Below are positions 22,751 to 30,749 of a stretch of DNA of 64,000 nt, piece by piece. The notes below the pieces were generated by a model, which saw only the letters and a list, made by a program, of their open reading frames with translations, did not search any database and was not told the DNA's origin. Each line of letters opens with the position of its first letter. The stretch's first letter is position 1. The translations under genes were made by a program, and so were the position numbers. Source of the DNA: Escherichia coli (lineage in GTDB: Bacteria; Pseudomonadota; Gammaproteobacteria; Enterobacterales; Enterobacteriaceae); the NCBI RefSeq assembly GCF_050320075.1, contig NZ_CP190018.1; one strand, given 5' to 3'.

Positions 22751-22957
22751 GTGAATTGTATTAACGACCTGAACACAGGCGATGTCAGAGGTGGTTCCGT
22801 TCATCTGGATGCACAGACCGTGATGCGCCTTAAGCAGTACAGAATCGACCATGTGAACAATCACCCTGATCAGCCATTACCAGGCGTGGCGCAGATTGTC
22901 AGACATGCCGTAAACGCCTGGCTTAATCAGAATGGTTTTGCATCGGGGGGTGAGTAA
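22751..22957 (+). CDS. small protein (68 aa), possible DNA-binding regulator; first gene of cargo operon
   Basis: GTG start preceded by AAGAGGA; helical basic segments (VMRLKQYRIDH, IVRHAVNAWL). Confidence 0.4.
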   Translation: MNCINDLNTGDVRGGSVHLDAQTVMRLKQYRIDHVNNHPDQPLPGVAQIVRHAVNAWLNQNGFASGGE

Positions 22958-23053
22958 TGAATCGCTGGTACAGCATCAAAGCAGAGGGACGCCAATGTTA
23001 TCTAACTCAGGTTTTATGAATTCTGACTCCCGATTCAAAATAGGAGGTTACTA

Positions 23054-25585
23054 ATGCCAGTCGTACCAACAGTATCCGGACGTCAGGTTGAGAGCCGTGG
23101 AGTTCAGTCAGCAGGCTTGCAGACGTTTTCTCAGCCAGGTATTGGTGATGCTTTTGTTCGGGCAGGGGCAGAGGCAATTGATGTTTTTGGTCAGGCAAAA
23201 CAGCGTGCCAATATTGCCTTGATTCAGGAGGCATCCCTTAAACTCAGTCAGACAGGCAGTGATCTGCTGAATAATCCTGAAACAGGATTGCTTAACCTGA
23301 AAGGGAAAAATGCTATTGGAAAAGGCCATGAGTATACACAGCAGTTTGATGCTCAGATCGAACAACTGGCTATGTCGCTGCCGGATGAACAGGCTCGTAA
23401 TGCTTTCATGCAGCAGGCGCAGCAGCAGCGTATTCAGTTCGCTACGCAGGCCGGGAGGTACGAGATAGGGCAAATAAATGCCTACGAAGAAGGCCAGTTT
23501 CAGGCGACACTGCTGAATAATGGTAAAAATGCCTCAGCATTATATGGCGACAACGCAGCATACATATTGGCTAATACGCAAACTTTCCAGCAAATTGAGG
23601 ATTACGGTATTGCGCATGGCTGGAGCGACGAGCAAATCCAGGCCAAGAAAATCGAGTTTAAAGAAGCAACAGCAAAAGCAACTGCTCAAAATGCTATTGG
23701 AGCAAACTATCTTCAGGTAAGACAGCAAAATGGCGAGTTAAGCGATACTGCTGCTGGATCTCGCCGTGCTGTAGCAGATAGTGGCTCTTCCGATCGTACC
23801 CGCGGTATACGCAACAATAACCCCGGCAATCTTGAATACAGCAAAACTAATCCGTGGGTTGGGCAGACTGGTGATGATGGTCGCTTTGCCAAATTCGAAA
23901 CCCCTGAACACGGTATTCGCGCGCTTGGTCGCAATTTGCTGTCGTATCAGCGTCAGGGTTATGACACCATCAGCGAAATAATTAATCGCTGGGCACCGGC
24001 CAGTGATGATAATAAAACTGATGCTTATATACGGGCAGTATGTGCTCAGCTCGGTGTAACTCCTGACCAGCCGCTTGACGCATCAAATCCTGACACACTG
24101 AAATCTCTGTGCAAAGCAATTATTCATCATGAGCAAGGCAGTCAGCCGTACAGTGATCAGCAATTGGCCGCTGGCGTTAGTGCCGCACTGGGGCTTTCTC
24201 AGCTACCGACAAAAAATAAACGTTATACCGGTGTAGCCTGGTTCGATGCTTTAAGTGAATCAGATCAGGCCAGCGTGTTGCGACAGACGGATGCATTAGC
24301 CAGACAGCAGCAGGCTGAATATAGAACGATGCTCGAAAGCCGGGTTCGCGATGCAACGGCTGCGTATATGCGTGGCGTTGAATTTCCTAACCCGCCTGGT
24401 GAGGGTGAGTTCATTGCTGCTTATGGTGTCAGAGAAGGAAACCTGCGATATACCGAGTTCAGAAATTTGCAGATCGCCGGACAGTATATAGGCTCTTTCC
24501 GCAACATGCCGACAAGCAGCATTACCGCATATGTTGAGCAATTACGCCCGGATACTGGTGAGACAGGGGAGGGGTATGCGTCTCGTGCGGAGTTATTCGA
24601 CCGGGTATCGGCGGCAGCCACGAAGGTAATAACCCAGAGGCAGAATAATCCGTTTAGTGCAGCGGTGGAAATCGGAGCCTATAAGCCGATCACCAGCAAC
24701 AACCCTGACGATATCACTGCCGAGGTGGCTAACCGTTTCTCGTCGCAGGAAAGCTTACGCGCGTTGGGAATTAATGCCCCACTCCTCAACAGTGAAGAGG
24801 CGGCTGCGCTGGCACAGCAGGTGCGCGGCACTCAGAACGTTGACCAGACAATTAAACTGTTGCAGAGCATGGGGGAGAAGCTGCCTGCGCCAGCAATACG
24901 GCAGGTGGCATCTGTAATTGCTCCGAACAGTGCGGCAACAGCCTATTCTGCGCTGCTGCTGGGCACGCCGGATAACCAGTACGACAACACCAGGCCGACG
25001 ATCCCATATAGTCAGTTCATCGGGTATAAGCCGACGATGAACAAGTACGACGTTGCAAAGGTTATTCTTTCCGGCGACCAACTACTGAATCCGACGAAGG
25101 CCATGAAGAATGCGGGCATAACTCCGGTACAGTTGCCGAGCGAAGATAAGATGAAAGACGCTTTCGACGAACAGGTAGGTAATGCATTTGCCCGTAACCC
25201 GCAGTTACGCCAGATCAGTTATAGCCTTTTCAAAGCCGCTTACGCAGGAATAGCTTATCAATCTGGTGATGCCTCTACGGTAAGAACCAGTATGCCTGAT
25301 ACAGACATTGTAGCTGATGCCGTGAAGTATGCTACTGGCGGTATATACAATGGTTTTAATGGCGGCGACGTTGTAATGCCTTTTGGCATGGATAAATCTA
25401 CTTTCAAAGATCGCTATACCACATCTGCGAAACAAGCACTGAAAGATGCCGGACTTAACGTAAATGCAGTGTCAAATTTCACGCCAGTTAATATCGGCAA
25501 TAACCGGTATCGGCTTGTAAATGGTAGCGGACGCTGGGCAACAGATCCCAGAACCAATAAAGCTATTGTCGTGAGGGTTGAATAA
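23054..25585 (+). CDS. large hypothetical protein (843 aa), Gln-rich N-terminus, conserved-looking GIRNNNPGNL block
   Basis: Strong SD (AGGAGG) 7 nt upstream; uninterrupted 2.5-kb ORF; no family recognised. Confidence 0.65.
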   Translation: MPVVPTVSGRQVESRGVQSAGLQTFSQPGIGDAFVRAGAEAIDVFGQAKQRANIALIQEASLKLSQTGSDLLNNPETGLLNLKGKNAIGKGHEYTQQFDAQIEQLAMSLPDEQARNAFMQQAQQQRIQFATQAGRYEIGQINAYEEGQFQATLLNNGKNASALYGDNAAYILANTQTFQQIEDYGIAHGWSDEQIQAKKIEFKEATAKATAQNAIGANYLQVRQQNGELSDTAAGSRRAVADSGSSDRTRGIRNNNPGNLEYSKTNPWVGQTGDDGRFAKFETPEHGIRALGRNLLSYQRQGYDTISEIINRWAPASDDNKTDAYIRAVCAQLGVTPDQPLDASNPDTLKSLCKAIIHHEQGSQPYSDQQLAAGVSAALGLSQLPTKNKRYTGVAWFDALSESDQASVLRQTDALARQQQAEYRTMLESRVRDATAAYMRGVEFPNPPGEGEFIAAYGVREGNLRYTEFRNLQIAGQYIGSFRNMPTSSITAYVEQLRPDTGETGEGYASRAELFDRVSAAATKVITQRQNNPFSAAVEIGAYKPITSNNPDDITAEVANRFSSQESLRALGINAPLLNSEEAAALAQQVRGTQNVDQTIKLLQSMGEKLPAPAIRQVASVIAPNSAATAYSALLLGTPDNQYDNTRPTIPYSQFIGYKPTMNKYDVAKVILSGDQLLNPTKAMKNAGITPVQLPSEDKMKDAFDEQVGNAFARNPQLRQISYSLFKAAYAGIAYQSGDASTVRTSMPDTDIVADAVKYATGGIYNGFNGGDVVMPFGMDKSTFKDRYTTSAKQALKDAGLNVNAVSNFTPVNIGNNRYRLVNGSGRWATDPRTNKAIVVRVE

Positions 25586-30401: not shown

Positions 30402-30715
30402 TGACGAGAGATAAAATTGAATATATTGCTTCTCTTAAATATGAAGCTGAGAAATGGAGAAGGATTGGCTGGTGGGGAACATTAATATCACTCTCTGCTT
30501 TACTTATAGACTCCTGGTTCAGACATATTGATGCAGCATCATTACTTTTTGAATCAGCAGTACTTGGTGGATTCATTTGCTGTTGGGGTGGTAATTATGA
30601 TCGGGCGTCCAAACATAAGAGAGAACTTGACGCGATATGTTTTGCTTTATTCGGTAAGGATTACGAAAGTTCTGACCTTGATATAATTGAATTCAACAAA
30701 ACGGAACTATCGTGA
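30401..30715 (+). CDS. small membrane protein (104 aa)
   Basis: Start overlaps previous stop (TGATG); two hydrophobic helices (WWGTLISLSALLI, AVLGGFICCWGG). Confidence 0.5.
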   Translation: MTRDKIEYIASLKYEAEKWRRIGWWGTLISLSALLIDSWFRHIDAASLLFESAVLGGFICCWGGNYDRASKHKRELDAICFALFGKDYESSDLDIIEFNKTELS

Positions 30716-30723
30716 CATGTCAC

Positions 30724-30749
30724 AGGCCGCTTTCGCGGCCTTGTTTTTA
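30724..30749 (+). terminator. intrinsic terminator ending the cargo operon
   Basis: AGGCCGCTTTCGCGGCCT followed by TGTTTTTA. Confidence 0.6.

Follow-up and report, generated by a model that had tools for sequence, protein, structure and literature searches.

What are three very large proteins, all labeled hypothetical, doing in an operon of a small integrative element of the Escherichia coli chromosome? We asked this of the operon at positions 22,751 to 30,749 of a 64,000-nucleotide stretch of contig NZ_CP190018.1 (the window), for which the original prediction, made from the sequence alone, had found no protein family and had supposed a P4-like element. All three proteins can be placed (phrog_992, phrog_1145, and phrog_684), and they are related to DNA-injection proteins of Salmonella phage epsilon15. 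The element between positions 12,913 and 32,076 is, with a little better than an even chance, a podovirus satellite of the phage-inducible chromosomal island (PICI) type, integrated at glyU, that supplies its own DNA-injection proteins.

The operon itself was recovered as first described. Calling of open reading frames (ORFs) in the window returned five ORFs of 68, 843, 686, 918, and 104 amino acids, forming one operon between two terminators with the stop/start overlaps TAATG, TAATG, and TGATG, and the same five genes are annotated by RefSeq in the 100%-identical record NZ_CP123240.1 of the source genome, E. coli YZLc1-3. The 918-residue length is counted from the ATG at 27645; a GTG upstream at 27624 would extend the protein to 925 residues. 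The top two terminator-like sites within 21.5 to 32 kb, each a stem with a T-run, lie at 22624-22645 and 30724-30741. A promoter scan found no sigma-70 consensus promoter in the AT-rich leader (22654-22750), so that this leader is probably an activator-dependent promoter region of a late operon. The features of the operon are as follows, with L003 denoting a sibling PICI described below and MCP the major capsid protein.

22624-22653, + strand: intrinsic terminator at the end of the replication module, conserved with L003
22654-22750, + strand: AT-rich leader, probable promoter region of the satellite late operon, aligning with the region 5' of the L003 capsid gene
22751-22957, + strand: 68-residue opening gene of the late operon, GTG start (phrog_4934, E = 2e-31)
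22957-23053, + strand: capture scar, consisting of the start of a protease/MCP gene and then the 3' end of gp14 (alignment with L003 and matches to prophage gp14)
23054-25585, + strand: gp15-like internal virion protein of class C, 843 residues (phrog_992, E = 1e-289)
25585-27645, + strand: gp16-like internal virion protein, 686 residues (phrog_1145, E = 3e-136)
27645-30401, + strand: gp17-like internal virion protein of class D, counterpart of T7 gp16, 918 residues (phrog_684, E = 6e-294)
30401-30715, + strand: 104-residue protein in the variable "gene 18" slot (homologs after gp17 in 13 phage loci)
30724-30751, + strand: intrinsic terminator of the cassette, within the right recombination arm

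The DNA of the operon is about 77% identical to and colinear with genes 15 to 17 of epsilon15, and the gene order and translational coupling of the cassette are those of that phage. The gp15-like and gp17-like proteins match epsilon15 gp15 and gp17 over their full lengths (79% and 89% identity, respectively), and the gp16-like protein matches epsilon15 gp16 at its two ends (83% and 74%), with the middle replaced. Residues 249 to 403 of the gp15-like protein (nucleotides 23798-24262) make up a muralytic domain that matches a phage Gp29 chain (PDB 9vvp_L, E = 4e-39) and an endolysin (7q47_A, E = 2e-16), while a PDB sequence search with the gp16-like protein gave no meaningful match. Searches of NCBIfam and Pfam returned nothing for the cargo (Pfam holds no family for any of the three large proteins), and PADLOC-DB v2 returned 0 families for all five operon proteins at E <= 0.1, which explains the "hypothetical protein" labels; the cargo was placed by PHROGs and by direct DNA and protein comparison only.

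Internal virion proteins A to D exit the capsid and build the channel through which phage DNA is ejected. Hardies et al. (PMC4819975) paired gp13, gp14, gp15 plus gp16, and gp17 of epsilon15 with classes A, B, C, and D, respectively, of the internal virion proteins of T7; the link between epsilon15 and T7 rests on that study, and a PDB profile search with gp17 gave no meaningful match and no T7 chain. On the strength of these homologies, the three large proteins are homologs of epsilon15 gp15, gp16, and gp17 and would correspond to the ejectosome proteins gp15 and gp16 of T7. The original prediction had named, as one result that would refute it, homology of all three to ordinary structural proteins within a complete prophage. 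Half of this applies: ordinary internal virion proteins they are, but they do not lie in a complete prophage.

The product of the last gene (104 residues; GC content, 37.5%) has two hydrophobic segments by hydropathy, in agreement with the membrane protein first predicted. In 13 phage loci, the gene that follows gp17 encodes a homolog that is 65 to 83% identical (mostly 79 to 83%), so that the cassette is phage derived in its entirety, from gp15 through gene 18. The small protein encoded in this slot varies with the cassette, having 64 residues in epsilon15 (L001 19326-19520), 104 residues with two hydrophobic segments here, 98 residues (phrog_3075) in the phiV10 type (L005 26943-27239), and 186 residues with a signal peptide (phrog_11983) in the SLT type (L178 18077-18637). 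Their position and their membrane or secreted character suggest that these products may be entry-exclusion proteins.

The replaced middle of the gp16-like protein is an insert of 202 residues (residues 278-479, nucleotides 26416-27021) that contains the motif HEALH and has a GC content of 38%, compared to 47 to 52% in its flanks. A motif of the HExxH form would make a metalloprotease conceivable. This insert was seen in E. coli satellite island copies only and not in phage copies. A search of a word-indexed protein database found no homolog, and an exhaustive search of 1.84e9 representatives returned only a 74-residue fragment of the insert itself. The center of gp16 is a hypervariable slot in general: a survey that took in phage loci L018 to L082 found a proline/acidic linker of 44 to 64 residues in 26 loci and a linker plus coiled coil of 139 to 178 residues in 37 loci.

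The island that carries this cassette is 19,148 bp in size and is delimited by a perfect 16-bp direct repeat (12913-12928 and 32061-32076), of which the left copy is the 3' end of the tRNA-Gly-CCC gene glyU; matches in sister genomes stop at about 32078. Its remaining features are the following.

12857-12928, + strand: tRNA-Gly(CCC) gene glyU, the last 16 nucleotides of which are the attL core (ARAGORN, Rfam tRNA)
13056-14309, + strand: tyrosine integrase (phrog_1, E = 7e-79; RefSeq)
14354-14421, + strand: int-alpA RNA motif RF02996 (Rfam, 46.9 bits versus a gathering score of 35.8)
15463-15660, + strand: AlpA-type excisionase/regulator with a helix-turn-helix (phrog_2790/phrog_66, E ~2e-11; AlpA family label in a sister copy)
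15736-17110, + strand: AntA/AntB-type and BRO-N-type antirepressor genes (PHROG antirepressor families, E = 2e-36 and 3e-55; RefSeq)
17937-18695, + strand: Icd-like gene, 85-residue gene, and DUF4222 gene, just 5' of the primase (NCBIfam phage_ICD_like above cutoff; PHROGs; RefSeq)
18692-20818, + strand: primase/replicase of the DUF927 type, of the family found in PICIs and capsid-forming PICIs (cf-PICIs) (phrog_1139, E = 6e-174)
21029-22385, + strand: single-stranded DNA-binding protein (SSB), ProQ/FinO-like protein, and 138-residue protein (PHROGs and NCBIfam profile matches)
32061-32076, + strand: attR core, 16-bp repeat of the tRNA 3' end (direct repeat)

The int-alpA RNA motif, a hallmark of int-alpA islands, is placed between the integrase gene and the next gene, and the inventory of genes from attL to attR also includes YlcI. 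Between these sites, annotation, PHROGs, and comparisons revealed no capsid, portal, terminase, tail, gp13, or gp14 genes. No match to MCP was found anywhere in the island, PHROGs, NCBIfam, and the comparison of relatives yielded no homolog of the small terminase (TerS) or DUF1441, and the tailspike, tail tube A and B, and lysis genes of the Uetakevirus prophage are absent within attL-attR. The internal virion proteins thus stand beside integration, regulation, and replication functions only, as the first reading of the locus had it and as RefSeq, PHROGs, and NCBIfam confirm, and they take up about 42% of the island. They are, as first predicted, accessory cargo of a discrete integrative element, which is satellite-like. 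The label P4-like was imprecise: no island ORF matches psu, sid, delta, or epsilon in PHROGs or NCBIfam, and the primase is of the PICI/cf-PICI family.

Relatives of the island indicate how the cassette came to lie where it does. Among 80 IMG/VR contigs (mostly 8 to 19 kb long) with primases 60 to 99% identical to that of the island, about 45 are cf-PICIs with MCP, protease, portal, adaptor, HNH, TerS, and large terminase (TerL) genes. Four others carry a ClpP-protease/MCP fusion behind the same 68-residue gene, three of them together with a DUF1441 (TerS-like) match, a layout that is the one of classical enterobacterial PICIs (PMC10085698). Homologs of the 68-residue gene precede protease/MCP cargo in L003, L107, L128, L129, and L152, and positions 22700-22983, which include this gene, are 87 to 90% identical in L003. 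The alignment with L003 shows that the promoter region, the 68-residue gene, and the first ~30 nucleotides of the protease/MCP gene (MNRWYSIKA..., 22957-22985) have been kept; from about 22986, the sequence continues with the last ~70 nucleotides of a phage gp14 gene (T7 gp14 family) and matches the 3' ends of gp14 in E. coli prophages. Because this gene start and this gp14 remnant remain, we conclude that the cassette replaced the capsid/packaging module of a PICI. The same scar recurs in islands with other cassettes, near-identical in strain F11 and identical over the printed stretch in strain 755. The 138-residue protein (21969-22385) is, among the 80 relatives, confined to islands of the injection-protein type, where it accompanies all three cassette types described below.

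One backbone with its scar and att sites hosts at least three very different sets of cassette alleles, given here with the lengths of the gp15, gp16, gp17, and gene 18 products.

epsilon15 type, 843/686/918/104 residues: this window and 36 genomes; closest phage ~77 to 80% identical in DNA, or 91% in protein for gp17
phiV10 type, 837/600/824/98 residues: islands of F11 and ETEC1749; 96.9% and 94.9% identical over 7.4 to 7.6 kb to the prophage of ExPEC XM
SLT type, 873/565/849/186 residues: island of strain 755; matches the prophage of YZLc1-3 at 97.9% identity across 6.9 kb

Between types, gp16 and gp17 are 21 to 29% identical or without detectable similarity. The cassette in the window is itself a mosaic, as the first ~512 codons of gp15 are of the phiV10 type and the rest is of the epsilon15 type, the arm at 23043-24588 being 92% identical to the ExPEC XM prophage. 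On the right, the recombination arm is formed by positions 30711-30785, which Uetakevirus-type prophages of E. coli match at 97 to 99% identity in the terminator region that follows their gene 18; this 75-bp terminator stretch is 98.7% identical to prophages of the phiV10 type, and the interior of the cassette is epsilon15-like. The synonymous substitution rate (dS) between island variants is ~7-fold higher in the N-terminal arm of gp15 than elsewhere, and some variants are 99 to 100% identical to prophage gp15 over several hundred base pairs. Judging from these patterns of identity, cassettes have been exchanged repeatedly between islands and phages.

The gene set is not peculiar to one strain. 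The satellite-specific junction turned up in 44 of the 5,426 complete genomes of E. coli and at three chromosomal sites (glyU, yicC-dinD, and dadX-cvrA), and the ORFs were intact and of identical length in all nine island copies compared. Within the island lineage, the ratio of nonsynonymous to synonymous substitution rates (dN/dS) is 0.02 to 0.2 for the gp16-like gene (30 variable codons with synonymous changes only versus 8 with amino acid changes), 0.06 to 0.29 for the gp17-like gene, and up to 0.17 for the C-terminal part of gp15. The island copies of the cassette are under purifying selection. The sole disrupted cassette among the inspected copies is that of L011 (strain TUM9803), where the IS4-like element ISVsa5 (7203-8411) interrupts the gp17-like gene. 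Among species-representative genomes, epsilon15-type gp17 occurred in full prophages only, and a match to the Klebsiella "phage" ST11-OXA245phi3.2 was set aside as an ordinary prophage.

Beyond these 44 genomes, a second satellite lineage carries the same genes. It comprises at least 19 contigs (IMG/VR and Logan/NCBI), one of them a complete chromosome, with a different PICI-like backbone in the order AntA, Phage_ASH, primase (61% identical to that of the island), and SSB. Its cargo consists of homologs of gp15, gp16, gp17, and gp18 with 837, 632, 918, and 61 residues, and gp13, gp14, and tail genes are absent from its islands. This cassette is nearer to epsilon15 than that of the E. coli island and has a full epsilon15-like gp16; it has different junctions, no gp14 remnant, and another upstream gene. 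A 55-residue protein of this lineage has no BLASTP homology to the 68-residue leader protein. The second lineage could represent either an independent capture or an old shared ancestor that already had the cargo, and both readings speak for selection to carry exactly this set. Downstream of the cassette, on the opposite strand, islands of this lineage (L169 to L176, ~12985-13941 and 17196-18158) have an AlpA gene and a toxin-antitoxin pair resembling HicA/HicB, which adjoin an Abi_2 gene in some contigs. For one contig, L056, the integrase downstream of the cargo raised the possibility of a circular permutation (an excised form), which we rejected as sister contigs diverge at ~15.2 to 15.6 kb; this divergence is more simply the right boundary of the element beside a neighboring element.

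Which phage could serve as the helper? Uetakevirus-type head modules are present in 564 of the 5,426 genomes, and complete prophages of this type lie beside guaA in the source genome YZLc1-3 as well as in ExPEC XM and F11. Terminase, portal, MCP, tube, gp13/gp14, tailspike, and lysis genes are all present in true prophages (L005, L180, L183, and L165 to L168). Island and resident prophage differ in cassette type in all three genomes inspected: the epsilon15-type island resides with an SLT-type prophage in YZLc1-3 and with a phiV10-type prophage in ExPEC XM, and the phiV10-type island of F11 resides with a prophage of a fourth type (905 plus 1004 residues). The epsilon15 type is found in 36 of 44 islands versus 17 of 564 prophage-bearing genomes (Fisher's exact test, p = 3e-37, uncorrected for clonality). 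Co-occurrence of island and prophage gave p values of 2e-5 to 3e-18, which we down-weighted because a further satellite may account for the second matching locus and because of the clonal relatedness of the strains. The prophage of ETEC1749 was not located by synteny. Outside the cassette arms, island and helper share 13-mers at chance level (23 versus 19.7 expected).

The prophages have features of their own. That of the source genome (L180, NZ_CP123240.1 1463083 to ~1500000, outside the window) combines the SLT-type cassette with its own tRNA-Arg, an MT-A70 methyltransferase, and RecT. That of F11 (L183 11110-17407), otherwise similar, encodes gp14, a 905-residue SLT protein, and one 1004-residue protein without BLAST similarity to the other gp17 types, a two-gene injection layout that resembles T7 gp15 plus gp16. 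An 18-nucleotide exact match (CAGAAATGGGTTGATGAC) between the gp17-like gene of the island (28458-28475) and the gene for the large terminase in the prophage of ExPEC XM (L005 8908-8925) is probably coincidental, with ~0.02 such matches expected by chance.

Among known satellites, the island is closest to PICIs without being a standard member. SatelliteFinder defines PICIs by an integrase, a regulation module (alpA, merR, or stl), a primase-replicase, a capsid-morphogenesis gene, and a small terminase (PMC10085698). Three of these five components are present here (integrase, AlpA-type regulation, and primase-replicase), the capsid-morphogenesis and small-terminase genes are not, and the island carries other phage structural genes, which the definition disallows; marker-based satellite finders would therefore miss such islands. 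Nor does it have the MCP, portal, head-tail adaptor/connector, and TerL by which cf-PICIs are recognized, the psu-delta-sid operon with epsilon and alpha that marks P4-like satellites, or the features of complete prophages. At 19.1 kb, it is about double the median PICI size of 9.5 kb (PMC10085698). With classical PICIs, it shares the order of integrase, int-alpA RNA, AlpA, antirepressors, Icd-like, DUF4222, and primase, site-specific integration at a tRNA gene, and the L003 leader, but it has internal virion protein genes in place of capsid-morphogenesis and small-terminase genes, and its implied helper is a podovirus rather than a lambdoid siphovirus. In common with cf-PICIs, it has the same primase family and, following the replication module, a set of phage structural genes. 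Unlike the island, however, cf-PICIs have their own MCP, protease, portal, adaptors, HNH, TerS, and TerL and steal nothing but tails; the island encodes the one virion module that they lack. P4-like satellites differ by their psu-delta-sid operon and epsilon, and the relatives of the island's primase are PICIs and cf-PICIs. In epsilon15 and the T7 ejectosome, the counterparts of gp15 to gp17 are not separated, as they are in the island, from gp13 (class A), gp14 (class B), and all head and tail genes. The capsid-morphogenesis genes of PICIs offer a parallel in that they too are late-operon variant copies of a helper structural protein, although the target in our case is the injection core and not the capsid shell. 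Ccm of SaPIbov5 is such a satellite paralog of a helper virion protein used for hijacking.

These comparisons lead us to propose the following mechanism for a podovirus satellite with its own injection proteins. Upon induction of a resident Uetakevirus-type prophage, the satellite would replicate and express its cassette, and the island gp15, gp16, and gp17 would be loaded on the helper portal and gp14 core inside procapsids built by the helper. On infection, these proteins would form a trans-envelope channel for DNA entry. The choice of the injection apparatus in transducing particles would then lie with the satellite, and the type would usually differ from that of the helper; particles of the commonest allele would carry an extra satellite-specific domain as well. 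We infer that expression would depend on the helper, that the proteins would enter virions, that the DNA of the satellite would be packaged, and that there would be a selective benefit. The AntA/AntB-type and BRO-N-type antirepressors are candidates for derepression of the helper, and the 138-residue protein could possibly be a helper-interaction or packaging factor; it shows weak PHROG matches to the N-terminal region of an antirepressor and to a "terminase" family, and its 22-residue match to the C-terminal tail of the helper small terminase is marginal and not significant (E = 0.095). T7 ejection proteins supplied in trans are functional. Two island copies amount to 38.3 kb, close to a headful of 39 to 40 kb, so that capsid resizing may be unnecessary, as reported for PICMIs (PMC10803314). 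The island might gain by bypassing entry exclusion in helper lysogens, which would fit the cassette mismatch and the pattern of a rare allele; by not depending on the distal end of the helper late operon; or by delivering the HEALH domain. For the last, there is precedent in ejected internal virion proteins that are fused to enzymes, namely, N4 gp50 with an RNA polymerase and H66 gp60 with a methylase domain (PMC4819975); unlike these foreign domains, the HEALH insert has no detectable homolog or fold assignment and occurs in the satellite copy only. Tentatively, and at well below an even chance, we extend the proposal to a class of satellites, the first of its kind to be recognized, that parasitize podoviruses by carrying their own injection apparatus instead of capsid-remodeling and packaging genes, that swap cassettes with their helpers, for which a type unused by residents would be favored for entry into excluding cells, and whose dominant allele would co-inject an HExxH effector.

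Several observations weigh against the proposed podovirus satellite. Helper virions already hold their own gp15 to gp17, and what a satellite copy would gain is not obvious; moreover, proteins loaded into procapsids cannot tell the DNA of the satellite from that of the helper. The searches turned up no small terminase, pac mimic, or capsid-size gene on the island, DNA comparison identified no phage record that holds the island, and contigs of IMG/VR and of JGI metagenomes yielded no attP junction of an excised form. The co-occurrence statistics are uncorrected for clonality, with the second locus verified as a prophage in three genomes only, and a single-sequence AlphaFold2 prediction of the HEALH insert (pLDDT 42) gave no usable model.

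The main rival is dominant-negative interference, in which a foreign or hybrid injection set would co-assemble with the core of an infecting or induced Uetakevirus into noninfectious particles and so protect the population, with or without transfer of the island. Satellites often interfere through paralogs of helper proteins, as with the capsid-morphogenesis genes of sibling PICIs (PMC10085698), and a decoy would account for much that is seen here: the mismatch with the resident prophage in three of three genomes, a gp15 with a phage-identical N-terminal arm and a remainder that does not match local phages, an island allele that is rare among prophages (17 of 564 prophage-bearing genomes versus 36 of 44 islands), and an island on which no packaging function was found. 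We nevertheless regard it as unlikely. The divergence from phages is not constant, given that the island cassettes of F11 and ETEC1749 are 95 to 97% identical to common prophage cassettes, and a poison subunit would need one protein only, whereas all three are full length and under purifying selection; the islands also coreside stably with complete prophages, and PADLOC gave no match. An alternative without any benefit to the island is that the hijacking module was lost by illegitimate recombination and that the cassette is a passenger, overwritten by gene conversion and at most an allele reservoir for phages. Such conversion would be eased by the phage-shared arms (0.4 to 1.5 kb on the left, 75 bp on the right), and two allele sets are indeed nearly identical to prophage cassettes; the epsilon15-type island cassette, however, has no phage counterpart above ~77 to 80% in DNA, or 91% in gp17 protein. 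Likewise, the IS4 insertion in one copy and the lack of evidence for mobility in the attP searches of IMG/VR and JGI metagenomes would suit an idle passenger, but dS values of up to 0.03 to 0.04 with dN/dS of 0.02 to 0.3 within the island lineage indicate evolution under constraint inside islands. As the insert is specific to satellites, the second lineage, which differs in its junctions and shares just 61% identity in its primase, retains these genes, and the boundaries always take in gp15 to gp18 and leave out gp13, gp14, and the tail genes, we hold this explanation to be quite improbable.

Of the roles offered in the original prediction, that of helper-hijacking or virion-delivered proteins is the one supported; a known defense system is not supported, given the lack of PADLOC matches. 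From the mobile island setting, the membrane protein encoded last, and the orphan HExxH-containing insert in the gp16-like protein, one could imagine a new kind of antiphage defense or a toxin-like complex in the membrane, with no relation to virion assembly; this is very improbable for three full-length orthologs of virion proteins without a PADLOC match, in a cassette that is exchanged with phages as a block and ends in an allele of phage gene 18.

Known satellites alter capsid size, packaging specificity, or late transcription of their helpers or build their own capsids, and to our knowledge no satellite of a podovirus has been established. In the searchable literature, which is incomplete, we came across no description of satellites that carry ejection or internal virion proteins, and the SatelliteFinder paper does not mention any. 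If the islands are mobilized as we propose for a podovirus satellite, the DNA-entry step becomes a target of satellite-helper conflict, and they would be a natural example of whole ejectosome cassettes that can replace one another on a single head-tail chassis, which could help to understand these poorly understood proteins and to engineer phage host range. If they are not mobilized, they are still a clean case of a repurposed PICI backbone and of strong selection on phage injection proteins in a nonphage context.

Some further observations concern the backbone and its relatives. Just 5' of the AlpA-like gene lie two tandem 33-nucleotide direct repeats (15308-15373) and two 17-nucleotide repeats (15250-15288), each of which holds a palindrome resembling TACCCTnAGGGT; they are candidate operators or iterons. 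A PerC-family regulator gene (22394-22619) is labeled as frameshifted in all island copies examined, whatever their cassette type or att site, and could be either a conserved pseudogene or a mis-modeled gene; an intact PerC gene is found in resident Uetakevirus prophages (L180 and L183). The sibling L003 (NZ_CP028755.1, 6954-19469) sits in the large-terminase gene of a lambdoid prophage, which it splits, and carries a DUF1441 (TerS-like) gene and a paralog of the ClpP-protease/MCP fusion of that prophage; it would be a satellite lodged in a packaging gene of its presumptive helper.

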